Below, piece by piece: positions 5,841-32,794 of a stretch of DNA of 53,006 nucleotides. The position numbers were made by a program, and so were the translations under genes. The stretch spans positions 14,577,119 to 14,630,124 of the forward strand of contig CAJINV010000001.1 in assembly GCA_905178155.1 (NCBI GenBank). Reading direction: 5' to 3'. Below the pieces are notes generated by a model. That model ran no database searches, was not told where the DNA came from, and saw nothing but the letters and a program-made list of their open reading frames with translations. The DNA comes from Amoebophrya sp. A120. Its lineage: Eukaryota > Protista > Dinoflagellata. Every line of letters starts with the position of its first letter. Position 1 is the stretch's first letter.

Positions 5841-5935
5841 TCTCGGAGAGGCAGAAACGACAAAGACAGCCGCAAGCGATCGGCGCAGACCGAAAGTCGC
5901 TAGCGGAGAGAGATCATCGCGCAAAATTCCACCAA
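5841..5935. repeat. 95-bp direct repeat B, copy 2
   Basis: Identical to 1817-1911. Confidence 0.85.
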
Positions 5936-9208: not shown

Positions 9209-9556
9209 GTCGCTACCAGGCGTCTGTCGGTGTTGGGAACGAAACTACACAAGAGCTAGATCACCGGCCCCCTTTTGCCAGAACACGTCCTAAAATGCCA
9301 GTCTTTGCCTCTTCCCTAAAAGGATCGCCGATAAAACTTTGCGAAGGGGCAAGCACACACTGCAAAATTGTCAAAAGTGATTTTTAGGTGCGGACAAGGC
9401 GTGCTGTATAACAACGACAGAAAGGAGGAAACTTTCGCCGTTTCCTCTCCTCTGCTGCATCAGAAAATTTGCACACCCATGGGGACCAGGCGAGACGTAT
9501 GACAAAAACGGGCCATCTTTCGAACTAAAAGCAAACCTCTATGGACCGCGGCCCCA

Positions 9557-10414: not shown

Positions 10415-10460
10415 TAAGAATGCAATTTGTCATGCTGAATTGCTTTGCAGATGAGATCTG

Positions 10461-11567
10461 TCATGCATACTTGCGAATACTACAAGCGAAATACTTTTGC
10501 ACATGATAGTTACGCATCTGCTGCAATTCTTCCTCCTCCCAAATGTACAGAGTGTCCAGCTCCGGGACGACGTACTGGTACTTTGTCGGCTGGCGCGAGA
10601 AGGTGTCGTTGGAATTGTCGGCCACAAAACTGCTTCCCATCGTGGCACTCCCAGAAGACGGGGCCACCGGATGCAGCCCTTCCGAACCAAAGTAAGCGAT
10701 AGAAGAAGACGCCACGCCGGCATTGGGAATCTCCTTGCTCTTCGAGTCCGCTTCCACCGATCGTTCGCCCTGCGAGGGCAGGTCCTCATCTGCGTACTTG
10801 TTGAAACTGGTATTGTCCAGGAGCTGACTATCCTCGGCGTCCTCCGCGTCTTCCCCCTTGCCGGAATCCATCTGCAACGCCGAGGTGAGAAAGTTGTCCG
10901 CCGGCGACGTCGCTTCACCGGAAGTTGCCCCAGCTCCTTCACCGGTGGTTTCTTCAGCGGCAGATTCCACAGCTTCTTTTCCTTCGGCCTCCTTCTTACT
11001 CCCAGTCACTTCGCGCACACCATGCAGGGCAACTGGATCGCGATTCGGATTGTAGCCGAACAAACTGCTCTTCGCGCCGGTGGCGGAGGACCCAATGGAC
11101 GATCCCGCTCCGGGGAGAGAAAACGCAGCGGAGCCACCGCGGGGGTTCTGGCGGTACTGCGCCATCGACCGGCCGGAGTTGTTTGTAGTAGTTTTGGGCG
11201 CGATTTGTTCGTACGTGGTGTTCAACTTCTTGAGAAACTGGGCAACCGGCAAAACCGGAATCTTCTTGTCTTTCTTTTCGTTAAACTTTTTCATCAGCTC
11301 CCTGTCAAACGTCATGTTGCCGTCTGCGTCCGCTTTGAACGTGCGCATGATCTCGTAGTCGACGCTTCCACACTGTTTCTTCGAGCCCCGGACCTTTTTG
11401 TACACGTCCAGGTTGTTCGTGGTCGCGGAGAAGTTGTTACGCCGCAACGCCTCCAGGATCTTGGGGTCCGTCATAGCAGCGCGCTCCTTGCGCTGCTTAT
11501 CCGCGGCGGCCTTGTCACCCATCTCTTTCGAGACGGCCTGCTCGATGATATTATCACCGATGACCAT
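10461..11567 (-). CDS. Transposon cargo ORF, unknown, low-complexity acidic/Ser-rich C-terminal half
   Basis: 368-aa ATG-initiated ORF. Confidence 0.65.
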   Translation of the reverse strand: MVIGDNIIEQAVSKEMGDKAAADKQRKERAAMTDPKILEALRRNNFSATTNNLDVYKKVRGSKKQCGSVDYEIMRTFKADADGNMTFDRELMKKFNEKKDKKIPVLPVAQFLKKLNTTYEQIAPKTTTNNSGRSMAQYRQNPRGGSAAFSLPGAGSSIGSSATGAKSSLFGYNPNRDPVALHGVREVTGSKKEAEGKEAVESAAEETTGEGAGATSGEATSPADNFLTSALQMDSGKGEDAEDAEDSQLLDNTSFNKYADEDLPSQGERSVEADSKSKEIPNAGVASSSIAYFGSEGLHPVAPSSGSATMGSSFVADNSNDTFSRQPTKYQYVVPELDTLYIWEEEELQQMRNYHVQKYFACSIRKYA

Positions 11568-12571
11568 CTTACAGCGGGCTGCTGGGGTTCAAGCTAATGC
11601 AAAACCGCTCCTGAAAATGCAAAAAATAGCTGGGGTTCTACTCTTTTCACGTTTCCTGAGATGCTGCCTTCTGAAAAATCTGTGGTCGTGAGCACTCCTG
11701 AGGAAATAACTATACGAAAGAAATGACGCTGGAAGCTGCAACCCGACATCACGAAGCGGGGCTGGGGAGCGGGCGCGCGGGCTCTCAAACTGCTGGCCGG
11801 CAAACTCGAGCACCGGATGAGCCCGACCAGGGGGCCAGGCCATTCAGAGAAAAAAGCGGGCCAACATTTCGGGGCCGGACAAAAAATTCCGCCGCGCCAG
11901 AAAAGCCTCCGCGCAGCGAGGCTTTTCGGCGCTGGGCAAAAAAATTTTTAAATTTTCCGCCGCCGGATCTGAAAATTTTGGAAAAATTTCTGCAATAAAA
12001 AATCCAAAATTTTTAAAATTTAGGGGCGGGATTTTCAAAAAAAATCGCCCGCCCGGCGGGACAGGCGATTTTCAATAGGATTTCCTTGCTGCGCCGCCGG
12101 GGCGCGCTTTTTTTTGTTTTTTTTCGCGCCGGATCCGCCGCAAAAAAAATTAAAAAAACGGGAAAAAAAAAGTGGAAATCGCTCGGGCCAGCGCTATTTT
12201 TAAAAAATTTTGAAAATTTTTCGCGTCCTGCTATACTTTTTTTTTTGCTCCCCGAGCCCCCGCAAACGGCAGCAAGCGCGCGCGTCTTGGCTTTTGTAAA
12301 AATGCTCTGCAGGCGATTTGGCGAGTTTGAATGTGATTCGCTTTCTTCCATTTTTCGATCTCTCACTGCGCTTTCAGCTCTCGCGAGGTCGAACTCAGAA
12401 CAAACGAGGACCGAAGAATGCGGCGCAAACAAGCTAGAGCGAAAAAAGACCGTGACTACACCTAGAATTTCGACGGACTGAGAGACTGCGCATTTACTTT
12501 CCTTCGATAGCCACTCGATTTGTCTTCGTGTTCAAAACATTGAAAAAGCTCTGCGAAAGCTCGAACCACTA

Positions 12572-15500
12572 CTATTGCGCACTAGCTGCTTCAGTTATCA
12601 TGCTAATGAGCGGTGCAAAAATTTCACTTTTTACTGCGATCGCAGTTCGTTGCTGAATTTGCACAGCGGTGAGCCTTTTGCCTTTTCCCGCCGCCTGTGC
12701 CAGCTCCTCCGCATCCGGATCCTCTGTTGCAACACGCAGATACTCCGTCGCGTCAAAAGTTGCGGCCTCCAGCTGCTCCTCCACCTCCCCAGCCGCCTGG
12801 AGTTCGATCGGAATCGCGCCGCGCTCCAACGTTGCCACGGCAAAGGCACAGGCTGCGGCCCAGACCCGGCCGAGGCAGGCGCAGACGGCCCGCCCACCAA
12901 ATTTGTTTATGTCGAACTGCTTCGACAAATGCAGCCCGTGCTTCCGATGCAGCTCCGCGGGGCCGAAGGTTATCACGCGGTCGAACAGAATGCCGTCCTT
13001 CGGCATCCAGGCCCGGTGGCCCGGTTGCCCCTCCCGGGTATTCGCTCGCAACCAAAGCCCGCCGCCCAGTCTGGTATGGTATCCCTCGACACTAATGGAC
13101 GAAAGGGCCGGAACCTCGTCCAACTGTTCGCGGGCAGACAACAGCTGCGCCGCTAGGTTTTCCGCGTTCTCGTTGTAGTTATCGTCCCCTCTGTGGCGCA
13201 GGCTACGGTGCTGCTGCGCAGAAGAGCTTGCGGCCGAGCCCTCCGCATAGCCCGCCGGATGCGCGCCACCGCTGTTCTGGCACCGGGACTGTGCGGCACG
13301 TCCACTCTCCCGGCGGTGCCAGATGTCTGCTGCGCGGTTGTGCAACGTCGGGTCCGTCAAAAACTGCTCCAACTCGCGCTCTCGCATTGCGCGCGCGAAC
13401 TGCAGCCCCGCAATCTCTTCATCATCATCAAACTCATCCCCGGTGTCCGTGTCTCCTCCATCGTCGCCAGATTCAGATTCTTCGGCCTGCAGAAATTCGT
13501 CGACCATTTGCAACAATGGCTTCCCCTCAAGCCAGTCGAAGACGAATGTGCAGGAGGAAACGTCAAACGAAAGCGGGGCATACCAACACTGCGCCGACTC
13601 TTCAAAATTTTCCTCCATCACCGCGGCGAGGTTCGTCAGGCTACATTCTTCCACAGGTGGTAGAGCCACGTGAAATTTGTAATCCCCACTGGAGATTGCT
13701 GGCTTCGGCGTCATCTTCAGCAGACCGACGGTGCGCTGATGACCTTCTGCGGGGGAAAGGACGAAAACCGTCTTCACCAGCGGCTTCGCGCGTCTGCGCA
13801 AGTTCGACTCAATGCCGGCCAGGCTGCTCTCGTCATCGTCCTCGGGGTCCAGGCCGAACACAACTGCACCTAGTCGACCGCTTTCGCAGGTATCTTCAGC
13901 TTCCAGAACGCACCTCTCGACCTCGTCGGCTGTCAATGCTGCGGGAAACTCGTAGGAGGAGTACGCCTGCTGAACGGTGGTCCCGAGCCACGAACCGGGG
14001 GCCGTACAAGAAGTCGTCCGGTCGCGCTCAATATCGGCCCGACTTTGCTGCCAATAATCGCGAATTTTTTCGAGGGGCACGGGAAGATCCAGCGAAGAGC
14101 TGCTACTCCGGCCTGGCGGACCGGCCGAAATTGCTGCTGCGGGAGGTCGCGCACCGGAGGTTTGTGCAATACTAGAAGACGACGACGCGGCGCTGTCGCC
14201 CCCGGTCTTGGCCTTACCCTGCCACACCCAAGCTCCAGAAGCGTCACGGACTAATGTCCCGGACTGCTCTTCTTCCACTTCCGGGTCGGAGCCCTGGGGT
14301 TTCTGCCCTTTCGCCTTCGCCGCATTTGCTGCATCGCTTTCCAGCTTCAGCCGCTTCCGGTCCGGCTCATACCGTGCTTTCTCCTCCTCGCTCACGAGGT
14401 TGTTGTCCCAGCGCCAAGCGGCGGCCGCGAATGTCTCCTTCGCCTGGATTTGTTTCGCCGCCCCATACTCGGCCCCAAGCGCGTCGGGATTCTGTATCAT
14501 GATCTCTTTGTTCTCCTTCGCGATTTGCTCCCCGATATATTTCGACCTTGCTGAGCATTTTTGCTTTTGGACTTTTTTCGCGGCCCTTGCTGCGCGGACC
14601 GCTGCGCTGGCGTGCTGCGCGAGAAGCTCGCTCGAGAACTGCGGAGTAATTACTTCCTGCGAAAGCCCCTCCACTGTTCTTCTCTTCGTGTGCAGCCCCA
14701 CTTTTCTCGATGAGATGGCGTGCTGGCTCTCTTCCAAGCGGGTTCCAAGCGTCACCGCCGCATGAACTGTTTTTGCAAGAGCCGCCAGCTGGTGGTCCAG
14801 GAGGTTCTGAACACTGCTCCAGTCGTCGGCAAGGGGCAGCTCGCGAAACACTTGCATGGCCCCTGCCTGATTTTCGTCGTCCACAATGTCGAGCAGCGGG
14901 AGCAATATTCCGTCCACATCCACTGCGAGCAGACGCTTCTCTTGGCGCATTGCCGCCCGAACCAGCGACCCCGCCACCGCAGGAATGTCTTCGATTTTCC
15001 CCGACAAGTACCCGAGTAATTTCAGCAGTTCATGCACCTCACCCCATGCCAAGCTCAACAACTGCTTGATCCGCGCCCGTAGTGTCTCCTGCGGAAGAAG
15101 GGTTTCGCGACGGAGGCTCTCGGCCATGATGACATCCGCCGGCCGGGAGAGGAGCGCCACCCACAGCATCGTCTCGTCCACTATTTTGGGCCATTGTTGT
15201 CGAACGGATTTTCGAAAACCGTCGTCGCTCCGTGCAACCAAGCATCTACCACCCAGTGCGCCGAACAGAAGAAGCAAAGCGCAACAGCGCCCCGACATCC
15301 ACTGCAAAGGCACCGCAGTAATTACAGTCATGCATGACAAATCTTGCTTCTTTGGTAAAGCCGCATGACAAGCTTCATCTTTCCGGCTGAGAAAAATTTG
15401 CAATGCGTATAGCGATACTGCGGTGCTGTTGCAATGCATACCGAGGGTAAGCCAGCGGCTTTCGGTGCCCACTTGTATCCTCACCAGCACATGCTTGAGG

Positions 15501-16165
15501 GTCTGCACTGCTTCCTCGACCGAACCTGCGACGACTTTCATCTGCTGAAAATCGAACCGGACCTCCGACGAAACGCCCGCGCCTCCTGCTGCTGTCTTCT
15601 TCTGGTTGGGCCCGCGTTCACCAACCAGGCGGAAAAGCACCGCCGTCTCATCCATTACCGCCATCGAGGCGGACAACCCGGGGCCGCCGGGTAAGCCAAT
15701 GGACCCGGACGGTGGCGCCAGCAATTCTTCCACCCATTGCTGCAAATCTTCTAGCAGATCACATCGATGATAAATCAACTTTCTCGAAAAAACGTAGAGC
15801 TGATGGGCCCACTCTTTTGTTTCTTCATGGTTCCCGAGCACCACGCGGACCTCGTCGAGGAGACCTAGTTGGCAAAAATGGTGCATGCAGTACTGCGTTA
15901 GGCTGGCGGTGCAGGATGAACGCCTTTCATTCGTCAAAGAAGACCAAACCCGGAGGATTTTTCTGATTTTCCGCCCCGCGCCCCCACTGTCCTGAACGTT
16001 GTAGACAACTAGCGGCCGGCGGCTGCCAGGCTTGCAGATGATCTTCTCCAGCTCCTCCAAAGCGTTCTGTATGCGCGGCCAGATGTCGCCAGCTGCTTTC
16101 GCGGTCAGCAACACGAGGTCCACCGGCACCCGGATCGCGTTGTACAGGCCTCCGCTTCTCACCAC
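12572..16165 (-). CDS. Putative DDE transposase, hAT-like/CxxH clade, main exon
   Basis: 1197-aa ORF inside a TIR/TSD element. Ordered motifs VYNVQDSG (second D), YCMHHFCQL (CxxH), TESRWLT (cf. hAT TRWNS) and TRLEESQHAIS (catalytic-E-like). Confidence 0.7.
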   Translation of the reverse strand: MVRSGGLYNAIRVPVDLVLLTAKAAGDIWPRIQNALEELEKIICKPGSRRPLVVYNVQDSGGAGRKIRKILRVWSSLTNERRSSCTASLTQYCMHHFCQLGLLDEVRVVLGNHEETKEWAHQLYVFSRKLIYHRCDLLEDLQQWVEELLAPPSGSIGLPGGPGLSASMAVMDETAVLFRLVGERGPNQKKTAAGGAGVSSEVRFDFQQMKVVAGSVEEAVQTLKHVLVRIQVGTESRWLTLGMHCNSTAVSLYALQIFLSRKDEACHAALPKKQDLSCMTVITAVPLQWMSGRCCALLLLFGALGGRCLVARSDDGFRKSVRQQWPKIVDETMLWVALLSRPADVIMAESLRRETLLPQETLRARIKQLLSLAWGEVHELLKLLGYLSGKIEDIPAVAGSLVRAAMRQEKRLLAVDVDGILLPLLDIVDDENQAGAMQVFRELPLADDWSSVQNLLDHQLAALAKTVHAAVTLGTRLEESQHAISSRKVGLHTKRRTVEGLSQEVITPQFSSELLAQHASAAVRAARAAKKVQKQKCSARSKYIGEQIAKENKEIMIQNPDALGAEYGAAKQIQAKETFAAAAWRWDNNLVSEEEKARYEPDRKRLKLESDAANAAKAKGQKPQGSDPEVEEEQSGTLVRDASGAWVWQGKAKTGGDSAASSSSSIAQTSGARPPAAAISAGPPGRSSSSSLDLPVPLEKIRDYWQQSRADIERDRTTSCTAPGSWLGTTVQQAYSSYEFPAALTADEVERCVLEAEDTCESGRLGAVVFGLDPEDDDESSLAGIESNLRRRAKPLVKTVFVLSPAEGHQRTVGLLKMTPKPAISSGDYKFHVALPPVEECSLTNLAAVMEENFEESAQCWYAPLSFDVSSCTFVFDWLEGKPLLQMVDEFLQAEESESGDDGGDTDTGDEFDDDEEIAGLQFARAMRERELEQFLTDPTLHNRAADIWHRRESGRAAQSRCQNSGGAHPAGYAEGSAASSSAQQHRSLRHRGDDNYNENAENLAAQLLSAREQLDEVPALSSISVEGYHTRLGGGLWLRANTREGQPGHRAWMPKDGILFDRVITFGPAELHRKHGLHLSKQFDINKFGGRAVCACLGRVWAAACAFAVATLERGAIPIELQAAGEVEEQLEAATFDATEYLRVATEDPDAEELAQAAGKGKRLTAVQIQQRTAIAVKSEIFAPLISMITEAASAQ

Positions 16166-16323
16166 CGCCTTTGCCGTACAAACGTGAAAAAGTATGCATC
16201 TGAAAATAAGCTAGTCCCAGGCAATGGCGATGCAATTGCTACTGCTGTCTTGATCGTGTTTGTCATGCATTTTGTCATGCCAAGTGCCTGCATTTTCATC
16301 ACATGGAACTAGCTTATACTCAC

Positions 16324-16674
16324 CAACATATTCTCGCCGTTCCGCTTTGGCTGCCCCTTAGATGCAGTGGTCCCGGTAGCATTGGAAACCGTGATGCCAA
16401 GTGGCGTCCCATCGTGGCCAATTCGGAGGCAGACAGGTTCGCGCGCATCTGCGTCGCACGCCGCCTGCAGCCTGTCCTTCTGGAACCGCTTCAAATACTC
16501 CACCGCCCGAGCACGAACCCGCATAACAGTCTTCTTCTCCACTGCAAATCCGACAAGGAGCCCAAGCGATTTGGAGAAGGCCTGGTACGGAAGCGAGGCG
16601 CTGAACATTATCGCCCCGATCATGCGACCCTTTACATCGTCAAAGAGCGCCTTCTTCAACGGGTCGCCGTCCAT
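16324..16674 (-). CDS. Upstream exon of the putative transposase (first catalytic Asp)
   Basis: VCLRIGHDGTP strand-Asp motif. Ends at consensus donor GTGAGT (16323); the acceptor is uncertain. Confidence 0.6.
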
Positions 16675-17156
16675 GGTGATCTACAACGGCGCTGCCGGGG
16701 GTGGGTTGGATATGGGGTGCAATGTGCCAGCGCAGTACTCGGGTTCTAGATACACAAACGCTTCTAGCTAACGGAAAAAAATAACTATACTTCTAGCGAG
16801 ATCAACATGGGTTTATCGACAGCTATCATCAATCAGGAAGTTCAGAAACTATGCAACGAGCGAGAGAAAAACAGGGGCGATCGCAACGTCCCTCGTGCTC
16901 ATCTCTAGTCAAGTAATGCGAAGACGAAAAACGAACGAAATCAGAAATCTCCACGAGCAGCTTTGTTCTCACGGGTTTTGATATCGACAGCTCGAAGTAG
17001 TTGCTGTGCCGCAGAGCGTCTGTCAATCCGGGCGTCTCCAACTTCCGACCATTCTTCGGCGACCGTCTACAGCCATCCCACGTCCATCAATGTCCGGCAT
17101 GAAAAAATAATTTTGCTTTTTTTGATTTTTTTGAACTTGGGAATGGGCCCACATAA

Positions 17157-19341
17157 CCATAGCGTCCACAGTGGGCGTCACGCCCAAGCGAGACATAACA
17201 GCAGAAAACACATCAGGCTTCAGCCTTTTGTCTGGATACAAATCCAGCAAGGTTGTGTTTAACTGCAGTCGGGAAATGGCATCGGCAATGATGTTGTGCT
17301 TCCCTCGGACATGTTGTGCTAAGGCGCAGATGCCTAACTTGCTGCACAGCAACTTAATATCCTTGCCTTTTCGTGCTAGCCACTTTTTTCGGCCCGTGCC
17401 GAAGTTCGCGTAGTGCTTAGCTGCTGTGTTATCGGTGCGTAGCAACAGAATTTTATCTGCGTACTTGCTGCCATGCAGCTTCAACCAGTCGCGAAAGGTA
17501 GTCAGTTCCCTTTTGTTACTGTGCCGTCTGTCTATGTATTCGTTAAAATCCCCTTCATACCTCACCGAGTCTCCGTCCACCGTGACTCCCCAATGGAAGC
17601 CACTGGCGTCGGACGTAACGATGCATAGACTGGCCGGGTCTATTTCTTTAAACATTTCCGGCTTGTCCAGTAGCTCTGGGGTCAAAAGAAAGGACTTTCC
17701 TTTCGTGGATGTGTGGATCGGAATGTGCGGATCGCACTCAGGCGCTTCCTGCCACCATTCTAAATCGCTGACCACATCCGCGGAAAGAGGCAGGCTGGGG
17801 CTTGCTTTCTTGTTCCCCTTTGTCCATGCCGAAATCACTCCACTTGCGCCCAGCAAGTCATATGATGATCTCAAAAACGCCCTACCTGCTGCAACCACAA
17901 ATGACACAAAGTTTAACATACCTACGATGGACGCTAGCTCTCTAGCCGGAACTTTTCCATCATCCTTAGACTTCTTCAAAAAATCTGCCAGCACCTGAAT
18001 ATAACGCAACCGCTTTTCAGGATCTATCGAAATGCGCACTGCAGCAGAATCGATAAGAAACCCAATCCGCGCTATCTGCGTGGTAGGATAAGTAAATTTA
18101 TCCAACTTATCGGGTCTAAAGGGATGTAACAGAATCCCCACCCTTTTCCAGATGGTTCGCACGACCATCATGTCGATGTATACACTTTTCAAGTCGGTTG
18201 GTCGCACCAAAGAGCAACCCCTGATATCATCTACATAATCCCGCATGCTAATACGCGGGAACTTTTTTTGGAGTGCGTGAGTTAAACTTTTTATCGCGGA
18301 GTCTGATATTCCGGGGGACGGACTAAGCCCCATCGCGGCAAATAGTATCTCAACAACTTTTTGCGCTTTCGCGTTGTAAAAATTGACTCCCATGAGTCTT
18401 CTAAATTGTGGCGCGATTAACCACAACCAAAAACAATCCTTCACATCCAAGCCCCACATGAGGCACCATCTTACCAAATCGGCCACGAAGTCGAAGATCG
18501 ACTGGCACATCGTGTCAACGCTTTTCAACATGCTGCTGAGACCCACCTTGGTCCAGTCGTTGACATAACGATCGCGATGCTCCCGGCGAATCAGATTCGC
18601 CGGGGCAATCGACAAACCCGGCGGGGCGTCCATCTTATCCCAGATGATCGCCTTTCCGGTTTCGGTGAACCGGTCCAGCTCCTTGGCTGCCGCGTCGAGG
18701 TTTTCCTGTATTGAAGGAAAATCCGGCTCGTCGAACAAAGGCAAGCCCTGCTCCCGGTTGTCGATCATGCGCTGGAGGTCCTCTTCGGATTCAAATTCCA
18801 GCTCAAAACCTCCGAAGAAGTTTGCACGCATCTCGGGCGAGATCCCGACCACCTTGCAGTAGTGCGGGTCGAGTGTCAAAGCGTCCGCCGCTGCTCCGTC
18901 CTCGATTTCCCTGTACTTGTCCGTGGGTCCTGGCTGTGCCGCCAGGTATTGGTAGACCTCCTCCTTGGTCTTGGGGAGTTTCAACCCCTTCACGTAGTCG
19001 TCGTTTTCAAACAACGGATCGGATGTGATTTCTGCGAGCCATTCGTCCACTATCGCTTCCGCCTCGCGGTTCCAGTCCTCGTTTTCGAGGTTGTGCAACG
19101 CATTGCGTCGATCGATTTCCTCTTGGGTCAGCTCGACCCCCATCTTTTTATAATCTCTTTTTGCCACTATGTGTGTGTGTAATCGCGATGGGTCAGGTGT
19201 GCATACCTGTGGCAGCGTACACTGCGCTCTCGCATCCCATGGATCCACGCTCGGCGCTCGGCCACCTCTCTGACAGCGTGCGCACGCTCTACAAGAAGTG
19301 ACTACATCTGTGAAAACAGGTGTCGCTCGTGACAAAAACAT
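17157..19341 (-). CDS. pol: YR-retroelement pol 5' part: reverse transcriptase, RNase H, start of MTase
   Basis: RT motifs LDVKDCFW, MGLSPSP, YVDD and IGFLID. DIRS-type RNase H motifs SDASGFHWG, HSNKREL, RTDN and HVRGKHNIIADAISR. MT start RLKPDVF..LGVTPTVDAM. Confidence 0.95.
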
Positions 19342-19494
19342 AGCTGAACAAGCTGCGCATCCTCGCTTGCGCCAGTCCGCGCTTCATGTGGCTCGAGCAA
19401 CGCCGCTCCCCCGCGTGCGGCCACCTTTGTTCGAAACAACGCTAGATCTGGCATATCATCAAAAAACCAACATCATGTTTGCCAACGTCATGTT

Positions 19495-20092
19495 TTACGC
19501 CTTGCGTGCTTTTTTGTCCAGAAACCTCGTAGCGTCATTAAGCCTTTTGGTGTCGTTGATCAAATCCAGACGACGACTCCACTGCTTGCTAGCTACAAAG
19601 GCCCACTCGGCCCACTTCAAACCAAGAGTCATGTCCTGATCATCATCGGACAGAGTCACCCACAATTCTGTGAGCCTTTCCAGCAAGTCACACCAGCGCA
19701 CTTCTTTGTACGCTGCCACGCAACTCGTGATCATTTTCTCGTGATTATTCTTGCTGTCATTCATGATTTTGACGCACCTCAAGCACTTTTGCACCTCATC
19801 TGCTTTGGCCAGCGTCTCCTGCTGGGCCCGAGCAAATTGCTCGATGCTCATCTGGGCGTAGTGCAGATTCATGGTCTCTGCGCTTGGTCGATCCTTGCTC
19901 TTCCAACCGCCCGCATGCAACGCCATGTGCCTGTCGTACAGTCCGTAAATCCTCGCGCCGGAAGCTCGGAAGCTGATCTTCTGCGGCTCCGGGAGTCTTT
20001 CTTTCCACTTGAAAGAAGATTTGGACAAGTGATCGCGCAAAACGTCACTGAAGTACTTGTTGGCCGCTTCAGGGGATAACATTTTCATCCCG
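19495..20092 (-). CDS. Tyrosine recombinase C-terminal part
   Basis: ISFRASGA (HxxR box, His substituted), AGGWKS and LHYAQ (Tyr nucleophile). Joins in frame as CPSLNG-MKMLSPE. Confidence 0.85.
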
Positions 20093-20856
20093 TCAACGGG
20101 ATCGGACCCCAATGGGCCCGGAAATAAAAAAATCATGAATCCCAAAAGAAAAACGAAAAAAAAAATTTTTGCACTGCCGCCCTATTGTGCCAAACCACTC
20201 CGCCGGGGCTCGCTCGATAGGAAATCTGTAGGCCCTAAAATAACGCCGGGGCTTTGTCAACAGGCTGCGGACCTGTGGGCTCCGGGGTTTTCGAAGAACT
20301 GCGCCACATGAAATCGAGCACGCAACTTTTGTTCGGGCAAACACAACTTCACCGAAAAAACAGAAAGACACCGAATAAATTTGCGCCAAAAAATTGCCTT
20401 CTTTGCGACATGAGTGCGACACGGGTGCGACACCGGTGCGACACGGGTGCGACATTTTTCGGCTTCTTCCTGAAATCCCTAAGAAAAAAAAAACCACGGC
20501 CGAAAGCCGATTTTTTTTAATTATTTCAGATTTTTTGTCGCAACAAAGGCGATTTTTTGTCGCAGAATTAATTGGCCACTCGCCCACCCAAAACTTTCCC
20601 ACCCAGAATCCCTCTCCCATCCCGAAGCACACACCGGCAACATGGGCTCCCTCTGCCGGCCCCACTCCAATCCCTTGCGCCCAGGCCTGCTTTTCCCGCC
20701 CAACCCACAAACCCAAGACACACAACCAGAAAAAGAAAACGCACCAGCGAGCGGCTGCAAGAACTGCGAAAACCCTGCGAAAACTTAAAAGCGCGAAAAT
20801 TTTCCGGCTTTTGTGATTTTTTTGCTTTTCTGACTACTGGGGGCCGATCCCGTTGA
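20093..20856. mobile_element. Non-autonomous TIR element (764 bp), TSD ATCCCG, inside the YR catalytic domain
   Basis: TIR tcaacgggatcgg(a/c)cccca. ATCCCG at 20087-20092 and 20857-20862. Internal 11-bp gtgcgacac(g/c)g tandem near 20410-20455. Confidence 0.92.
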
Positions 20857-21740
20857 ATCCCGTTCAGCGACGGGCACAAGTATTCTTGGTCAACTGCTAT
20901 CAAGTTTTCGCACCGCAACAGCTCATGTGCGCTGACCGCCACTTTCCTGGCGCCGCTACTTTCCTGGAAGTTGAGTCTCACGCTCGGGTCTGGCGACAGT
21001 GTTGCGCTGCCTCTGGGCCACCCCCAGTGCTGCGTCAACACCAGTAGCAGCTCTTCGCTTGCTTTGAACAAAACTTCCGGCGACGGCTGCAACGCCGCTA
21101 CATCTGGTACGGCGATCTGGTGCCCCGCCGCCATCGTGCCGAGCTTGAAGTCCGTTTTTCCCATCGTGATTCTCGCAATGAGCCCTCCGCGATGTATCCT
21201 TACCGACTGCCGTAGCATCCTGCACCCTTCGGACTTCCGCCTTTCGCCTAACACTCCTACTCGCACAAATAGTAGTGTTCGCAATCTGCAATACAGGGCT
21301 TTCATCCTGTTCAGCTTGGTGCCGTCCTTGGTGGTGTAACCCGCCTTCTCCCACTGGTCTTCGGCCTCCTGGTTACCCGGCGGACGAGCCTGACCGCTTG
21401 CCGACACTGCGAAGCGCTGCAGCGGTACCACTTCGCCTCTTGCGTTTGTCAGCCAAAACGCGGGATCAAGCGCCAAAACTTCATTGTTGAACTGCTTGAG
21501 CTCCTCGAAGGTGAGCGCGGGCTTCGGTGTCGGCTGCGGGTGGTGCGACATCTTCTTGATCGCGGCCCACATGTCCATGACATCTGGGTGCTGCTCTATC
21601 AGCCCGAAATCGAACATTTCGACTTTTCTCCGATGAAAATCCCGTAGCGCCGACCTCAGAAGGTTCATCATGTGCCACTTCGTTTTTACTACTCCGTTTA
21701 CTTTGGTGACTCCTCGGAGGCTTTTCTCGTTTTGCAGCGC
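20857..21740 (-). CDS. Tyrosine recombinase middle part
   Basis: LRSALRDFH, KPALTFEEL, LGERRKSE (catalytic R) and GKTD (K). Confidence 0.85.
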
Positions 21741-21765
21741 CTGCGTGTGGAAGAGAGTGACAGAC

Positions 21766-23382
21766 GATGAGGCAGTACTCTTTCGCGTCTCTTGCCGGGA
21801 GGCATTCCTCCGTCATCCCGGTCACGCTGTGCAGTGTCTTCAACGCTGACCTGTACGTGCCTTCCGTTGTACTTTTTACAGCGGCTTTCCTGTACTCGTC
21901 GATCAACGGCTGCATCCGCCCCAGCAACTGCGGACCCAGGTAGTCGGAAACATTCCGCGGCAGGTCGCGCACCGGTCTCGCGCCTGGTAGTGCTCTTTGC
22001 AGATCCGCCAGAGTCTTTTTCTCCCCTGTGATGTGCTGCATGGCTAATGCCCCTGCAAGCACTCCCGCAATGGGTATCATCGGCCTCGGGGAGCCCTTCG
22101 CGTGGCTCTTGTCGTAGACTGCTTTTACGAACGCCATCGCGTTTCCTGCCGTAACTGCGATCTTAGCGATCTCCTGCGCTGCGTTGCTGTGCGAGTACTC
22201 GTGATCCGTACACAACATCAATACTTTGATGATGTCCTGCTGCAGTTTTTCGATCTCGCTCCAAGCGGCCTCCGCGCCTTTCGACAATTCCCCGTAGGAC
22301 AATTTTTTCAACTTGTCCTCGTACTGCTCCATGTGTTTCATCACATCGCGAGCGGAAGTTAGGTGGAAAACTTTTCCAGCATTTCCGATTACTCCTTGGC
22401 AATCTACGGTGGAAATGAGAAACAACTTTCTCCACTTTTTGCTCAGCTCATCTGCGGTCTTGTGCGCATGCTGCGTTACTAGCTGCTCATCGTCATTCTC
22501 GATGTGCACTCGCGTGTCGCTTTTGATCATCAAGTATTGCGGCAAGTCCGGGCTGAGGACTGGTTTGCCGCGCGATTCCGTTTTGGCGAACGGATGTCCT
22601 GCCGGCAACTGGCTCCCGTTTGCTTTCGCGAAATCCGCCATCGACTGCCGGAAGACGAAACTGGTCGGCTTGAACTTTTCCAGAACAGATTCTTTGCCCG
22701 AGCTCTTTTTGGCGAAGGGGGGACTTTTTATCGCCGTGGAAATCAGTGACTTTCCTGCGCTAAGCACCGCACTCATGCCCTTCTTAGCGTGCCCTCCTTG
22801 ATGGACACGTGCCGCGGACCCGTCTTCTCTCTTGAGCAGCTTGACTGGACTCCTGCTCGTCTTTCCTAGACTGCTTCCCGCACTCTCGGACGAGGATAGA
22901 GACATCAGGTCGTCCCGCTTTGCCGCTGCCAAAGCGGATGCTCCTTCGCAAGCCTCATCCGCTTGCTTTGCGTCCGGTGGCTTGCTCGCCGCAGGCTTGC
23001 GCAGTGTTAACTTGGATGGAAATCGCTTTGCGCTTGCAAACCAACTGTTTGCTGCTGGGCGCTTGACACCTACACTCGCGAGCGTCCCTTGCGGTACACT
23101 GCCGGGTAAGGGATCCTTTGCCAGCGTGAACTTCGCTGGCTTTTTCTTCCAAAAACTGGCGATGGGAGACGACTTTGGCGCTTCTTCGCCCTCTGCGCTC
23201 GGCTGCGCCCTGGCCGATGTCGCGCTTGAACTCGTCACTTTCTCAGTATCATCTTCGTATAACAGCGGATCTAAACATAAAGCAATGAACTCGTCCGCAA
23301 GACCGCCGCCCACGTCCTCCTCGGACGACGGCTCGTCGCAAAGCCACTCCATTCGTTTGCTATGCGCTAGGGCCTCAATCAA
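21766..23382 (-). CDS. Tyrosine recombinase ORF N-terminal part (long extension + start of SAM-like domain)
   Basis: Long ORF ending AAVKSTTEGTYRSALK, typical of the DIRS YR N-domain. A 1-nt frame offset to the next part is explained by a putative 25-nt intron. Confidence 0.7.
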
Positions 23383-23908
23383 ACCAACGTATCAACGTCT
23401 CTCCAAACGCTCGCAACGCCAGCCAACCTCTCACAGTGCGCAGCACCACGGCTCGAACAGACATACGCGCACACTCGCATCTATGCGCGCGAGAATCAAT
23501 GCTCGCAAGTAATCTGATTTTTTGCTTTTTTTCCAAAGCTTTCTCGTGTTTTCTGTGGACCATCCTTGAAAACACCACTTCTAATTTTCAAATTAAAATG
23601 AGTTGATAATCTCGTGTATTTTCAACAAAAATACTCGACGCGCCGCCTAGGAGTTGCAGTCTGCGAGACCTCGACAGCATTCAGACGAATACCTAGCCTC
23701 AATTATCCTAAGTGCGTCAGCATGTCTTTCCGGTCGAAACATAAGATCGCGTGCTCAATGCACGCCTTCAATTCCTTTTGCGGTCGAAAGTTGTGCTTCC
23801 CATGCGTCTTGTCTTACTGGCGAAGTCAACAATCCTGCTTCAAATTTCACTGGAATTGGCATTAATATACTTTATTTTCAAAAAATAAAAATTGACGTCA
23901 TGATCGTA

Positions 23909-25207
23909 TCAGTACGGACGAGAACGACCATGGTTCTTCTTTTCGTAACCACCACCACCACCACCTTTCTTTCCTTTTTTTCCTTTGCCTTTGCCGGACT
24001 TGCGGCGGAAACCCGGCTGCCAGTCCGGGTTATATTCACCGTCATCGATGTGCCCGCCGTATTCGCCCTGCGCTTCCCCTTTGGGCTTGCCATCCTCGCA
24101 CTGCGATGGCCACCAGTCGTGTTTTTTCTTACACTTAAAACAGCGAATGGAGAATTTGCGCAGTCGCATGCAGGCCGAGTACGTGTGGTCGAACTGCCCC
24201 GGATCACCACCCTTCTCCTGCCAGCAGTGCTTGCAGGCTTCTTTTCCGATGCCCTTGAAGTTGGTCCATAACTTCATAGACATTTTCGGAAACGCCGTCG
24301 CGAAATCATCGACTGCATCGCACCGCATCTCCATGGTAGCAGAATCGTCGCTGCTCAACGACGTGATCTTCTCGCGGAACTGTTTGGTGTAGGTTTGGCT
24401 TTCCATCTCGTCGATGGTGACATCTTTTTCTTTGTTCTTATCTTTTTCAATCCTCGCTCCGCCAGCCGGAGTGCCGATGATCCTGCTCGCGTCGCCTCCC
24501 AGCTTGGTGAGCTGGTGCGCCAGACGGTCACGCTCGGACTGCATGTCCGCGACCCGCTTTTTCAACGCATTGTTGCCACCGGTCGCCGCCGCGGGGGTGG
24601 CACTCCCCCCGGTTCCCACCACCTCAGCGCTCACTGTACCGGAGATGAGACTTTTTTTCAATCCTGTCTGGAATAAGTATTCCGATTGAATTGTCGAAAA
24701 CCGCGGGAGGATGATGCTGAACCAGGCCTGGAACGCATGTCGCTCCATATTCTTTTGTCGCGTGCCATGCACGGTCCAGACTTCCTTAATAAATAATAAG
24801 GCGTCGACTCTGGATCTGTGTTGCAAGGCCGTGGCTTTCGACGGGTCGGTCGGCGCTCCTGGTTTTCCTGCAGCGTCGTTCTGGTTCGCCTGCAGGATCA
24901 GCTCCGCGATCAGCGCGTACTCGTTCAGGATGTGAGTCGCGAACTCCACCTTCGTCTTCGCCTCGCCTTTGAAGGCACTGAGGTGACTCCCGTAGGTGTT
25001 CGCTTGGGTCCTCCAGGACGCCGCGATGGTTTGGATCGTCAAGTGCTCCGACTCGACCGACGAGTCGACCTTGTGCTCCCCCGTCTTGGGATCCCGCGAC
25101 ACCATCGAGGCAGTTTTCAATTTCTGGCGCGACCACAGGGATCGCAGTCCCTCCTTCGTGGCGATGATTTTCGCATTGTCACTGGTATCAATCATCGACG
25201 TTGTTCC
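23909..25207 (-). CDS. gag: Gag-like ORF1 C-terminal part with two CCHC-like zinc knuckles and a basic/Gly tail
   Basis: CKHC..H....C and CFKCKKKHDWWPSQC; positioned upstream of YR and pol. Confidence 0.75.
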   Translation of the reverse strand, partial: GTTSMIDTSDNAKIIATKEGLRSLWSRQKLKTASMVSRDPKTGEHKVDSSVESEHLTIQTIAASWRTQANTYGSHLSAFKGEAKTKVEFATHILNEYALIAELILQANQNDAAGKPGAPTDPSKATALQHRSRVDALLFIKEVWTVHGTRQKNMERHAFQAWFSIILPRFSTIQSEYLFQTGLKKSLISGTVSAEVVGTGGSATPAAATGGNNALKKRVADMQSERDRLAHQLTKLGGDASRIIGTPAGGARIEKDKNKEKDVTIDEMESQTYTKQFREKITSLSSDDSATMEMRCDAVDDFATAFPKMSMKLWTNFKGIGKEACKHCWQEKGGDPGQFDHTYSACMRLRKFSIRCFKCKKKHDWWPSQCEDGKPKGEAQGEYGGHIDDGEYNPDWQPGFRRKSGKGKGKKGKKGGGGGGYEKKNHGRSRPY

Positions 25208-26434
25208 TCAGTCAGAAACCCCGGGGCGGTGGCGGCCGCTAATTTCCAGCTAATTTCTGCGGGATTTTTTCAAACCCCGAGACCCGGGACAATGGGTGAA
25301 GACCCAAACCCGGAAAACCGAGCGCCCAAGCTGCGCCACATAAGATCCCAAAGCAATCAGGCAAGGAACTTCAGGAAAACAAAAAGCACCCAATGGGAAG
25401 CAGGCCACCTTCTGCACATGGAGTATGGCAGGGGCGGCAATCTCACACAGGACGAATTCCCACAAGCCAAAATCCCAAATCCCAAAGCCGCCCGAAAAAC
25501 AACATCAACCATCGGAAACCCCACCCAGTTACACCCACACGAAACAGCCCCCGCGGGCGGCTATTTTCGCTGCTAATTCCCCGGCTAATTTTGGTTCTAT
25601 TTTTGTCTCTATTTTTGGGTTCTATTTTTGCTTCTAAGTCATATTCTATTTTCGTGCTCTAAATCGTATTCTATTTCCATGTTCTAAATCGGGGCTCTAA
25701 ATCGTATTCTATTTTGGTTTCTAAATCGTGCTGCTATTTTGCTTTCTATTTTTTGCGGGATTCGCATGTTCGAGCGGCTGTCTTTCAACTTCTAAATTCG
25801 CGCTTTGGAGGATTTCCTTTGGAAATCTCCAGCGTCGCGAAAAATAGAAGATGAGAAGACAGCTGCCGAGCACGCGAATCCCGCAGAAAAATAGAAAACA
25901 AAACAGCGAGCACATTTAGAAGTCCAAAATAGAACACGAGATAATTGGGAACCCTGGCGGTGCTTTCGAAAAGCCAAACGACAATGGCTATGCGAAAAAG
26001 TGAAGCAATGATAGGGCGGAGGGATTTCAACATTGGCCACACGGCTGGGGTCTTCACAGCCCAATCCGAAAGCCCGAGGGCCCCCAGGAAAGCCAGACCA
26101 CGAGCGCTACCCACCACCTTCGGGGCCACCCGGGGACGAAAATACCAAAGAAGCCCCCGCGGCGTTCGAAATTCCGAATCCCCTGCAAACGGCCCGAATT
26201 TTTAAATTTTAATTCCCGCCATGCCTTTTCATTGAAAAAAGCACGCCGGGTCAGCGGGGGCTTTGCGAAAAACCCGGGTCCCCGGGAGCTGCGGAAAAGG
26301 GAGGAACCCAGCGGGCCCGGGGGCCTTCAACGCCCGGGGAAGAAAACCACCGCCCAACCTATGGGCTTCGGGGAAATCCCGCAAAAATTAGCTGGGATTT
26401 AGTGCCTCCCGCGGCCCGGGGGCTCTCTGACTGA
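25208..26434. mobile_element. Non-autonomous TIR element, TCAGTCAGA family (1227 bp), TSD TGTTCC, inside ORF1
   Basis: ~60-bp imperfect TIR. TGTTCC at 25202-25207 and 26435-26440. Diverged homolog of the 2562 and 32795 copies. Confidence 0.93.
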
Positions 26435-27329
26435 TGTTCCGTCCGCTCCTGCGGCCACCGACTGGAACTTCTCTTGCAGTTTAATAGTATTTAATTGCGC
26501 CTGCAAACTCCCGTTTGTCTTCTTCGAAATTTCCATCCTCGGAAATTTGACGTATGTTTTCACCTCGTCGATGAAAAGCTTGTCCTTCTTGCGCAGCAAC
26601 GCGCACTGTCCCAGGAAGGGGCAGTGCTGGTGAATCTGTTTCGCCACGTCCCATTCCGAGATCTTGGGGCTCTCGTCCATGATCGCCTGAGTCGCAGTGT
26701 CGTCCAACGCGGACTGCGCGAGCTTCTGACACATGAAGCAGTCCAAGTTGAGTCCTGTGCGCAAGCACTTGGGGAAGTAGGTGCCGCACACATCCTTCTG
26801 CTCTGTCTGGCACGGCCCGCACACGGCGACGTCTTTGCAGGATGCACACAAGTGCAACATGTCCGGCAACGCCGTTTTTGCGAAACTGCGATCGCAGATT
26901 TTACACGAGACGTCCGTCTTTTCCTTTTTAGCCGTGAAAAAAGGAGTCGACGACTTCCGCCGGCGCAAGGACTCGATGTCGCTGTCGGTGTCCGGCTCGG
27001 ACCGGAGGCCCGCGGCTCTCCGCTTTTCCCGCTTCAAGCGATGCTTTTCCGCGATCTTGGTGCGCTCGGCCTTGAGCTCCTTGATCTCCTGGCCCATGAA
27101 ATTGATCTGATCCATCACGTTCCTCTCCCTCTCCTCTTTCCACCGAAGACTGGAGGAGGTAGTCAACAAACTGGATTTCACACCTTGCAACTCCATGGCC
27201 AGCTCCTGCGTCTCCTTGCTCATGGGCTCCTTGAACTCGTTGATGGATTCACCCATGCAGTTGTTTTCGTTCCAACCCAGCTCATTGCAGGCGGCGCGCA
27301 GTCCATTTTTGATCTTGTGGATGTTGTGC
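26435..27329 (-). CDS. ORF1 middle exon: coiled coil + Cys-rich zinc finger
   Basis: CKIC..CASC..CGPC..C..C..CFMC. Joins in frame as GADGT-TSMIDT after element removal. Confidence 0.75.
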
Positions 27330-27437
27330 CTGAGATTGAACATTTTTCAAAATATCACTTCGCTTGCGGTTTGCATCTCATGCCAGCATGCTCTCTGCTG
27401 CTGTAGCTTTGAACTGCCTTGCAAACCACAACTTTAC
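27330..27437 (-). other. Predicted canonical 108-nt GT-AG intron in ORF1
   Basis: CAG|GTAAAGT...AATCTCAG|G removes an in-frame stop and joins LAEAR-HNIHK. Confidence 0.7.
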
Positions 27438-27648
27438 CTGGCCTCCGCCAGCGACATCAACATGGGACGCCAAGTGATGTTATCTTTTTTCTCCTCATCC
27501 ATGGATTCGACTAGTGCGGGGGGGTTCGGCAGGAATTCGCTCCCCTCGATGGATAATCCGACGCGTTTCAGCACATCGTCTATCATCTCCGCATGGACTC
27601 TCCAAAACAACGGACTGAACCAGGAGCGCGTCACGATGTCTGCTTTCG
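27438..27648 (-). CDS. ORF1 exon segment
   Basis: In-frame continuation LPTK-ADIVTRSWFSP after element removal. Confidence 0.7.
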
Positions 27649-28719
27649 TCAGGCGGACGGGGCGGGGCGATGTAACGCGCTAAATTCATTCTATTTTCCC
27701 GCTAAAATGTTTGGCCCCAAAGACAGGAAATCGCCCCAAAGCAAAAAGCAAAAACACCCACTGCACGCCCACCAAGCCTCCGCTCTGTCAGACGCCAAAA
27801 AACGGGCGCCGGGACCTTGGCTACGCCCCGGTCGCGCGGCGCTGCCGCCGGGCTTCCGCGGCCGGCGGGCTGGATGCGTTGCGCCGGCTCCTGCTTCAAG
27901 AGCAGGGCCCAGCAACTTTCGGCTGACAGCCCCTGACCTCCCAAGGCCTGGAGCTGAAGCCTTCAATCATCCCGTGCGCGACGGCGGAATTGCCCGAGCT
28001 TCTGCCTCCGGCGATTCAGCCGAGCCTTTCGCGCACGATCGGATTGCGGGCGGAAGGCGCGGCTGAAGAGCTAAAAAAATGCGTCTAAATATGTGTCTAA
28101 ATATTTGTCTAAATGTCTGTCTAAGTTGTGTGAACCCGTTCTAAATTTGTTGGCCCGACCTTCTAAATTGGGTCGGGTCAACAAATCCTTCCCGATTTCA
28201 CACCCCCGCGACATTTAGCAAACATTTAGCGCAAGATTTAGTGAAATCCGGAAAAAATTTAGCGCAATATTTAGCGGGAAATTTAGTCGGATTTCAGGTC
28301 GGATTTTCCTTGCGATTACCCGCGAATTTAGCCAGAAATCTACTCCGCTTCCGGCTGGCGGCCGCGGGGCCGGGGCCGCCAACCGACGGCGGAATGGGTA
28401 GTGGGGCAAATGTCGGGCCGCCGCGCCATATCCGCAAAATTTAAAAATTCGAAGCGGGATCGCCTCGAATTTTTAAATTTTAAAACGAACAGGGGCGGCG
28501 CTGCGGGGAAGCCATGCTATCACGCGGGCGCCGCGGGCTTCGCGTGAACCCGCGGCACACACCCCGCACCAGGCCGCCCCCTGCACGACGGGAGCGCTGC
28601 CTTGGCGCAATCGGGCGGCCCAGCCCCACGGAGCCAAGCACGGGCGCCGCGCGGGGGAAAATTTAGCCAGAAAATAGCGCGAATTTAGTTGGAACCTCCG
28701 CCCCGGGTCGTCCGCCTGA
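27649..28719. mobile_element. Non-autonomous TIR element (1071 bp), TSD CTTTCG, inside ORF1
   Basis: TIR tcaggcggacg...cggggcg...ctaaattc. CTTTCG at 27643-27648 and 28720-28725. Confidence 0.92.
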
Positions 28720-29203
28720 CTTTCGTGGGCAGATGGTAGAACTCCACATGAAAATACTTGCGGAGGAGTCCGCTCTGCACGACGGATTGCACTAGTTTAT
28801 CGAATTGCAACAACCACAGTCGCGGACTTTCCTTCGGGTTTGCGAACGTCGTCAGCGTGGCTCCCGTGAGGTTTCCCACGACGTCAATCTCGGCCGAGGG
28901 GATGTGCATCATCGCAAACGGCTTGAAGAAACGGCACGCGTTCCACATTTCCTCGACAGTCGGCATTTTCCATTCACTTGTGGACGCAGGCCGCTGCTTT
29001 TTCGACGCGTTTTCCTCCATTTTCTTCTCCATCGGCACATCTACTTCCGGCATTCCGAAAGCATCCAGGCGCTCTCCGTCGTGGACCAGAAGCTGCTCAC
29101 GCGCTTCTCGGCTGTACGGTTCGTCCTTGTGGTCCTCCCACATTTTCGCCAATTGCGCTTGGGTCATCGGAACTTCCAAATCGCCTGCGAGTCCCAATTT
29201 CAA
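28720..29203 (-). CDS. ORF1 upstream exon segment
   Basis: Open frame ending at the TSD; its 5' boundary is probably a splice acceptor near 29185. Confidence 0.65.
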
Positions 29204-29254
29204 CCAGATGCATACTTGAACTGCCAGCGCTGCTCAAATTCATCAATCGTATGC

Positions 29255-31198: not shown

Positions 31199-32278
31199 TT
31201 ACTTCGATTTCTTGCTGCTCTTCTTCTTCCGCCACTGGATCTTGTCCTCATCGAACGCGCTCGGGTTTTCTCGCGGAGAGCCAGCCCCGGCGGGCGACTG
31301 CCTAAATTCCCGCTATTTTTTGAACCGCCCAAGCCCTAGCCTGGGCGAGCAAGCCCGCCCTGGGCAATAGGCCGAGGCGGGCAACCCATGCCGGGGACAC
31401 AGGCGGGGCGCGGGCGACTTGCAGAACGCAGACGCCTGAGCCCATCGCCGAAGACCCGCCAGAAAGGCGCAGTGGCGAAGCAATTGCGCCGCCAACCCTT
31501 TCAACCGTTCTTGACCACGTCCCGAAATTTTCTAAGTTTGCGCCTAAATTTCAGAGCAACGGCCGACATAGGCAAAATCGCACGCAAATTGCCCAACGGG
31601 GCAAATTAGACAAAAAATAAAGAGCAGCCGAAGCGGCCAAGGCCGCTGCTTAAACAGAAATTAGAGGCGGCAAAGACCGCGAATATAGACAGGAAAATAG
31701 GAAAAAAAATAGACAGGAAAATAGACAATAAATTAGACAAAAACTTAAATAAAAACTTAGGCAGGAAATTAGACAAGAAATTAGACAAAAACTTAGACAA
31801 GAAATTAGCGCCCCCGCAAGAGCGCCGACTGTAGGAAAATTAGCGCGAAAATAAAGAGCCTGGCGCCGGGGGCGGCTCTGTGCGAGTTTTCCGACACCGC
31901 GCTCGTCGGCTTCATCTCGCCATCATCCGCCATCTGGAAGGTAGCCATGATGTTATCTCCATCCGGCATTCCCGGCATGGAATGCACGATGGTGGGCGCG
32001 CACTTGCGCCACATATGCGCGTACTCGGGACAATAGCGATCGGAGATGTCAAACCACTTCCCCTGCTCCTTGATAAACCCGAAAATCGGCGGCGCGCAGA
32101 GGCCCAGCTTTTCGGCCTTTGCCGCTAAGTCCGCGTCCCAGAACGCCGCGTCATAGAGCCCGCTGGGCTCGCCACGCTGGACAACCGGAGTCGGCTTTCC
32201 GTACTTGTGCGACATCTCGTCTGGACGCAAAGTCAGATAGACGCTACTTAACTTATCACTAGTTATTTCCTTTAACAC
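31199..32278 (-). CDS. Small unknown ORF (~152 aa) split by a TIR element
   Basis: Removing 31271-31891 joins SAVSEN-PSAFDEDKIQWRKKKSSKKSK-stop. Confidence 0.6.
31271..31885. mobile_element. Non-autonomous TIR element (615 bp), TSD GTTTTC
   Basis: TIR tcgc..agagcc..ccccggcg. GTTTTC at 31265-31270 and 31886-31891. Eleven 12-bp units at 31686-31808. Confidence 0.9.
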
Positions 32279-32794
32279 TCAGCTCTTTCGTCGCTGCTAA
32301 TCAAACACAGGAAGCAACGGTTTGTCATGAAGGTTTTTTACAAAAAAAGCATGAGTGTGGGAGTGCGCCATGCACTACTGGCTGCGTCTCAGCGCAGCTA
32401 AAAACCTCGCTCGTCAGAGGGCGGCGCCGCGAGAACAAAGATCACCGCACTCCCGGACAAACCGGAAGTGGACTGCCCCGAAATCATTCGCAGATGATTT
32501 CCTCACTTCCATCGTGCTCGACGTTCTAAGATAGATCAACGGAACAAAAAGAACAACTGCTAGCTAGTTCAATAGCTAGCACGCCTGCTTTGGCTAGTTC
32601 ACTTTCATCTTGGTCATTTCTGAGATCCGTCTCCGATTTCATTTCTATTCTAGGTACTCGGGATACTTCGAATAATAAAGAAAGAAGAAAACCGAAACGA
32701 TGAAGACAGTTGCTGCTAAGGACACCCCCCAGCGCTTGGGTGTCGGTATCTCTGTCCTGGCCATGAGCGGCTGGCCGCACAAAAAGAAAGAAGC

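Follow-up and report, generated by a model that had tools for sequence, protein, structure and literature searches.

The window analysed here is a stretch of 53,006 nucleotides of Amoebophrya sp. A120 (contig CAJINV010000001.1, positions 14,577,119 to 14,630,124 of the forward strand), and the element under study is a candidate retrotransposon of the tyrosine recombinase (YR) type whose features are listed in Table 1. All long frames between 6 and 29 kb of the window lie on the minus strand, where they form three non-overlapping open reading frames (ORFs) encoding first a gag-like protein, then the YR and then reverse transcriptase (RT), RNase H (RH) and a Dam-like methyltransferase (MT). When each insertion was removed by script together with one 6-bp duplication, the frames of ORF1, ORF2 and ORF3 were restored, with a Pol (ORF3) of 1067 codons. 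Without inserts, ORF1 has ~980 amino acids (29167-23909), ORF2 ~1,030 (23352-19495) and ORF3 ~990-1,050 (19341 or 19143 to 6021); the stop of ORF1 at 23909 is 556 nt away from the first ATG of ORF2 at 23352, and the stop of ORF2 at 19495 is 153 or 351 nt away from the first ATGs of ORF3 at 19341 and 19143.

A preliminary description of positions 17157-29203 had reported the order gag, YR, RT/RH/MT in non-overlapping ORFs, which was confirmed on the minus strand with the above gaps. It had also counted the YR as complete and the MT as lying inside that interval. The YR is indeed upstream of pol, but it is interrupted by an insertion of 764 bp (20093-20856) and by a frameshift at about 21760, and a Dam-like MT is indeed present, but only its first residues fall inside 17157-29203, the remainder (7003-6560) lying past a 10,153-bp insertion. 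The ~12.6 kb given for the internal region without inserts is correct as the distance between the repeats A1 and B1 (12,600 nt, between 32395 and 5936) and not for the interval itself, which without inserts measures 8,961 nt; the coding part covers 9,908 nt and the element from A1 to B2 spans ~13.8 kb.

The base calls were compared with short-read contigs of run X1, which is possibly the source of the window assembly, so that agreement is a check on base calls only. The contigs showed 0 differences over 16500-20120, 20829-25237 and 26405-31299, at a depth of ~22; thus, the lesions are real. Single contigs carry the C-terminal part of the YR together with the RT, and the C-terminal part of gag together with the N-terminal part of the YR. 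Judged by contig depth, the coding parts are at single-copy depth and the element is single-copy at 85% likeness. This copy is dead, decayed by five cut-and-paste insertions and point lesions.

Table 1. Features of the retroelement and its insertions, in window coordinates and in minus-strand order (TIR, terminal inverted repeat; TSD, target-site duplication; MITE, miniature inverted-repeat transposable element).
Feature	Position	Strand	Basis or remark
Repeat A1, 283 bp, likely 5' end	32396..32678	-	adjoins ~100-bp satellite unit
Short ORF, ~130 aa without insert	31199..32215	-	read-through after insert removal
615-bp TIR insertion, TCG..CGA, 6-bp TSD	31271..31885		multicopy by depth
ORF1, gag-like, ~980 aa without inserts	23909..29167	-	position and knuckles
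1,071-bp TCA..TGA insertion in ORF1, TSD CGAAAG	27649..28719		removal restores frame
1,227-bp TCA..TGA insertion in ORF1, TSD GGAACA	25208..26434		depth ~190 vs 22
ORF2, long N-terminal region and tyrosine recombinase	19495..23352	-	motifs, alignment to relatives
764-bp TCA..TGA insertion in YR, TSD CGGGAT	20093..20856		depth ~300
ORF3 5' part, RT (YVDD), RNase H (D-E-D-D), MT start	17157..19341	-	profile matches
10,153-bp TIR element splitting MT, TTA/TCA..TGA, TSD CTATGG	7004..17156		TSD and P0001
ORF3 middle, Dam-like N6-adenine methyltransferase homolog	6561..7003	-	Dam profile
ORF3 C-terminus, macrodomain, TARG1/DarG-like by weaker matches	6021..6560	-	PDB, PHROG
Repeat B1, 95 of ~180 bp visible, ends at N	5841..5935	-	100% identical to 1817-1911
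Satellite units and nested MITE between B1 and A2	2446..5839		assembly placement doubtful
Repeat A2	2159..2445	-	match to A1
Spacer A2-B2, 247 bp	1912..2158	-	depth 24 and 42, single copy
Repeat B2, 95 of ~180 bp visible, ends at 100-N gap, likely 3' end	1817..1911	-	identical to B1

ORF1 contains a Cys-rich region and two C-terminal CCHC-like knuckles, and is broken by one or more stops or by frameshifts at 27434-27349. No Pfam family reached its cut-off in ORF1, and the provisional label gag-like is taken from its position and its knuckles only. The gag-like ORF of L001, a related metagenome contig described below, ends in a similar double knuckle.

The YR motifs of ORF2 are the R in ERRKSE, the K in GKTD, ISFR, GGW and the Y in HYAQ; hence the YR has the residues R, K, R, W and Y but not the His of HxxR, at whose place the window and three proteins of Amoebophrya have I, V or L and L001 has Q. 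These motifs are collinear with those of the proteins P0004 and P0158 and of the L001 integrase, and P0004 and P0158 read unbroken across the site of the frameshift in the window YR. Alignment of the window YR with that of L001 scored 76, compared to 38 ± 5 (maximum 58) for 300 shuffles, and the ESM Atlas neighbours of ORF2 include NDC10_II, phage integrase and DUF3504 clusters (0.93-0.95). No YR homolog was found in a search among longer proteins, a PDB profile search with the YR returned no recombinase, and an HHalign comparison with the L001 YR was not significant. When a model of the N-terminal part of the YR (predicted local distance difference test, pLDDT, of 39) was used in Foldseek, nothing was found at E<=0.001, Cre entries appearing only at E 3-6.

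In ORF3, the catalytic acids of RT and RNase H are invariant in 19 aligned proteins; the RT gives a weak match to Pfam RVT_1 (E 0.012) and the ORF3 profile matches the caulimovirus RT/RH 8r0s (E 5e-5). The MT segment had no Pfam match; on a profile made from nine Dam-positive matches it reached 38.4 bits, the best shuffle reaching 5.0 (425 scored of 500). Protein P0001 crosses the break point of the MT unbroken and matches its far half at E 4e-20. The window MT has WHPS in place of the NPPF-type motif of the Dam-positive proteins, which we take to be the catalytic motif of Dam-type MT, and as read from this replacement the domain is likely inactive.

The last 180 residues of Pol, on which the preliminary description was silent, are a macrodomain (PDB 5e3b, E 1e-6; PHROG 335, E 2e-22), which matches the protein P0023 of Amoebophrya sp. 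A120, itself with an RH-MT-macrodomain arrangement, at E 3e-47. It shares with 5e3b and BT1257 (2fg1) the motifs AH.CN and IGCGLAGG.W among other sequence but, unlike them, is fused to a retrotransposon Pol; matches to TARG1/OARD1 and DarG were weaker, the latter (E 0.014) being far below the DarG cut-off. A structure model of MT plus macrodomain reached a pLDDT of only 35.

The coding region lies between split direct repeats, not inverted ones, in the layout A1 - 12.6 kb - B1 - A2 - spacer - B2, as in PAT, Ngaro and VIPER. A1 matches 2159-2445 with four substitutions and one 4-bp indel, and its boundary was set by a contig that joins B to it. In the contigs, B is 180 nt long, has ~2x single-copy depth and is joined directly to the A core without the 2446-5839 block. 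That block is a near-copy of the left flank of A1 (98.6% in the MITE) with one extra nested MITE, and is probably misplaced in the scaffold or derived from a second locus. A single long A repeat formed by 2159-5835 and 32396-34674 was considered as well and rejected, since the contigs narrow A to 283 bp.

When relatives were searched for, a word search gave three homologs of 42-52% identity and a profile search 6,132 proteins at E<=0.001, of which 150 were listed. Organism labels were looked up for 23 proteins, revealing four of Amoebophrya sp. AT5.2, one of Amoebophrya sp. A120 and 18 without label. A YR match was detected in only 3 of 161 proteins (P0003, P0004 and P0158, all AT5.2 gene models), and in all three it was N-terminal to the RT, never C-terminal. 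A first metagenome scan and two viral scans gave no relatives; L001 is one DNA locus found later, with YR (1283-2908), RT/RH/Dam (3199-5406) and gag-like (5951-7237) ORFs that do not overlap. Its integrase ORF is recognized by PHROG (E 3e-11) and Pfam (E 6e-5). In L001 gag comes last, which is a circular permutation of the window order; no second YR was found within 1.8 kb downstream and no terminal repeats were seen. The region 1283-7326 of L001 also carries in-frame stops.

A quick tree was built from 94 of 98 RT+RH sequences, the other four being a near-duplicate and three rows that were short or gapped, and placed the window in a 25-row clade with a Shimodaira-Hasegawa-like approximate likelihood ratio test (SH-aLRT) value of 100. 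In a more careful tree of 58 chosen rows (LG+G4, unrooted, query-biased top matches), a 23-row clade was recovered at 100/99 with two subclades, the window lying in one and the L001 pol (P0061) in the other. The only organism-labelled members of the RT-RH clade are from Amoebophrya. The YR precedes pol in both subclades, in five of five cases with known order, counting the window.

These data bear on an alternative in which the gene order arose by chance, through juxtaposition or nesting of two elements or through an assembly error; the preliminary description had named separate adjacent elements as a case that would speak against its proposal. The region is heavily nested and its assembly near A2 is doubtful, but a single short-read contig spans the junction of YR and RT with 0 differences, and there is no repeat between YR and RT. 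Moreover, the same order is found in the three AT5.2 models and L001, on both sides of the RT clade; therefore, the window order is not a chimera, and an accident is extremely improbable.

With respect to the known groups, the RT with RNase H and the presence of a tyrosine recombinase rather than a DDE integrase (from motifs, shuffle score and Atlas neighbours) agree with the DIRS order. PAT-like elements usually have their YR downstream of RT/RH/MT. The present element shares with them the split direct repeats, a Dam-like MT after RNase H (by homology only, the catalytic motif being changed) and a zinc-finger gag as in Pat1, but it differs in its YR, upstream of pol and on the same strand, and also in its macrodomain, the lack of ORF overlap and its size of ~13.8 kb. 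Pat1, TOC3 and kangaroo are described with repeats A1..B1-A2-B2 and a Dam-like MT, and kangaroo with an inverted YR (PMC4157794, PMC3266345). The inverted terminal repeats with an internal complementary region and the YR overlapping RT/RH of DIRS1-like elements were not found, the gap here being 153-351 nt. Ngaro is described without MT and with the YR as ORF3 after RT/RH (PMC8547959, PMC3266345), and the element departs from it on both points.

VIPER/TATE share the gene order, as the preliminary description had noted, with three ORFs (gag-like, YR, RT/RH); in the elements of T. cruzi and C. fasciculata the repeats measure 136-414 bp (A) and 219-308 bp (B) (PMC6681497). An element of this type outside kinetoplastids that had gained a Dam-like domain would account for the shared order and for A1..B1-A2-B2 repeats of similar size. 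However, VIPER is described without MT (PMC3266345), whereas members of the clade carry a Dam-like domain where DIRS and PAT have their MT; the host belongs to a different supergroup, a macrodomain is unmentioned in the excerpts of PMC6681497, and no hepadnavirus-polymerase Pfam match was found at E<=1 in 19 clade proteins, which is a weak test. A VIPER/TATE-like element of this kind is very unlikely.

A Syndiniales relative of the Symbiodinium DIRS type, with swapped integrase/Pol order and differing in accessory domains, was also considered. For SymbioDIRS, repeats of the A-coding-B-A-B type are reported together with a YR in an ORF of its own, a shuffled order of YR and Pol, a divergent RT that Pfam recognizes poorly, and some DIRS elements that have no DNMT (PMC5890265), and the host is a dinoflagellate relative; the element resembles SymbioDIRS-Dnmt3 in its dinoflagellate-group host, its repeats, its separate YR ORF and in one swapped-order architecture. 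In contrast to the Dnmt3-type C5 methyltransferase in the Pol of SymbioDIRS-Dnmt3, the MT is here of the degenerate Dam-like adenine type, with a macrodomain at the end of Pol. The labels looked up for 23 proteins included 5 of Amoebophrya and none of Symbiodinium, the other 18 proteins being unlabelled. Neither the window Pol pieces nor 20 clade proteins, many of which are partial, gave a DNA_methylase match, and the C5-methylase match found in none of these 20 was present in four proteins outside the clade. A SymbioDIRS affiliation is unlikely.

Those four (P0037, P0044, P0102 and P0110) are DIRS-like Pol proteins with a C5 cytosine methylase, three of them also with a Pfam Dam match; this recalls the dual-methylase 'EpiLTRs' of a 2026 preprint on retrotransposons with Dam domains (10.64898/2026.05.21.726589). 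In the parts of its main text covered here, that preprint does not mention Amoebophrya. The word 'DIRS' is absent from the main texts of PMC7789003 and PMC12005148, which report Amoebophrya genomes. A literature search that covered neither Repbase nor subscription journals brought up no publication on Amoebophrya YR retroelements, and 'macro domain' occurred in none of the 15 papers listed out of 131.

In summary, the element belongs to the DIRS order and lacks a defining feature of each named subgroup. Our preferred interpretation, which we hold to be probable, is that the locus is one decayed YR retrotransposon, with gag-like, YR and RT-RNase H-Dam-like-macrodomain ORFs between split repeats, and that it likely comes from a deep and little-described branch of this known class, not from a new class, in which the YR keeps its place immediately upstream of pol. 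An undescribed lineage is likely. The preliminary description had proposed an undescribed alveolate lineage, of which one element and a distinct RT-RH clade hold; restriction to alveolates does not follow, as most members are unlabelled, and the order itself is less new, since VIPER/TATE have it and PMC5890265 reported a swapped YR/Pol order in Symbiodinium DIRS in 2018.

Several points weigh against this interpretation. In the assembly, B1 is separated from A2 by 3.4 kb of satellite and MITE sequence, and the A joined to B in the contigs carries A1-type alleles. ORF2 gave no direct Pfam, PHROG or NCBIfam match and its YR is the one without the His of HxxR. The trees were made without named DIRS1, PAT, kangaroo, Ngaro, VIPER, TATE or SymbioDIRS sequences, and their rows are top matches of a query-built profile, which favours a clade around the query. 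The order rests on four relatives, three being gene models of one genome, seen as proteins without their DNA (P0004 and P0158 are close kin), and the fourth one contig, whose gag could belong to a neighbouring copy. Finally, the macrodomain was detected in only 1 of 152 proteins searched (P0023), P0001 and P0158 ending after the MT.

The insertions were identified by searching the sequence for inverted ends with a 6-bp duplication on either side, with a TC/TT end filter chosen after seeing the matches. Seven TCA/TCG/TTA..TGA/CGA elements were found (3389-4733, 7004-17156, 20093-20856, 25208-26434, 27649-28719, 31271-31885 and 36837-39092), five of them within the retroelement, compared to 0 in each of 10 block shuffles. 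Depth bins over the small inserts reach 44-344 against ~22, showing that these are multicopy, and the 1,227-bp insertion is ~87% identical to a copy at 32796-34021. Of the RNA runs, X4 and X5 gave 0 reads and X7 three small pieces, which do not bear on expression or on an intron-like removal of the inserts. Such removal is a possible reading, although with their TSDs the 764- and 10,153-bp inserts are not multiples of three; the other three are. The TCA..TGA elements (all of the seven except 7004-17156, plus 32796-34021) make up a non-autonomous TIR family with 6-bp TSD, mostly unrelated internally; Amoebophrya-type introners have direct repeats of 3-5 nt (PMC7789003).

The 10,153-bp element, at single-copy depth over 16500-17156, holds ORFs of 1212, 375, 290 and 242 aa, and the TCA..TGA MITEs may have their autonomous partner in it. 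One of its shorter ORFs (115 aa, 16674-16330, 'GHDGT') weakly matches ISKra4 transposase (E 0.024) and could splice to the 1212-aa ORF (16210-12572), in which 'QDSG' followed by 'CMHH' presumably represents a DDE/CxxH layout; the latter ORF had no Pfam match and its ESM Atlas leads were all under 0.9.

Among the remaining features, the short ORF next to A1 showed no Pfam family under E 0.05 in its 5' part and no homolog among 152 proteins. A satellite of ~96-100 bp, with contig depth >2000, occupies 34020-36802, 39093-39419, 5144-5839, 2446-2561 and 32679-32794; the position of A1 directly beside a satellite unit makes a target preference possible. Beyond the N gap, 817-1716 is a fragment of a separate element at ~2.5-3 times single-copy depth, without Pfam or NCBIfam match, which we take from its motifs to resemble Copia RT/RNase H. 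A 59-bp-TIR element (37503-38493) is nested in 36837-39092, a 160-bp tandem repeat lies at 40269-40794 and two TTTAGGG units at 40026-40039. The long low-complexity ORFs at 45634-47367, 48290-50281 and 50345-51043, in which no Pfam family reached its cut-off, probably belong to the host. In two proteins of the search, Pol ends in JmjC/cupin (P0004) or SET (P0098), which are either captures or gene-model fusions.

By the PAT/Ngaro/VIPER model, RNA would be transcribed from A1 to B2 and reverse-transcribed, the strands being transferred by way of the A and B repeats, after which closure to a DNA circle with B1-A2 as its junction would precede YR-mediated insertion; PMC6681497 gives the split-repeat model and PMC7192593 discusses the circle model. 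Such a circular intermediate might explain the YR-pol-gag order of L001. Rotating a single circle turns gag-YR-pol into YR-pol-gag, so that L001 could be explained by a shift of the recombination site, whereas gag-pol-YR is not a rotation and the difference from DIRS1, PAT and Ngaro needs a true domain swap. The MT, with its catalytic motif lost, probably has a binding or structural role, and the macrodomain is predicted to bind ADP-ribose or to remove it, which might plausibly counteract a response of the host. A bolder proposal, which we hold to be doubtful, is a fifth widespread group of protist YR retrotransposons beside DIRS1, PAT, Ngaro and VIPER, defined by a fixed YR-pol module, a His-less YR, a degenerate Dam, a gag that moves by circular permutation and a Pol tail that, as a counter-defence, captures enzymes acting on chromatin or ADP-ribose (macrodomain, possibly JmjC).

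Because of its divergence, the element has no YR or MT match in Pfam and would escape annotation pipelines. Two layouts in one clade that are circular permutations of each other would indirectly support integration via a DNA circle, which according to PMC7192593 has not been directly shown even for DIRS-1. The clade combines VIPER-like order with PAT-like repeats and MT, meaning that it either bridges those groups or that the order was swapped more than once, and the macrodomain in the Pol of two elements suggests an ADP-ribosylation conflict with the host.

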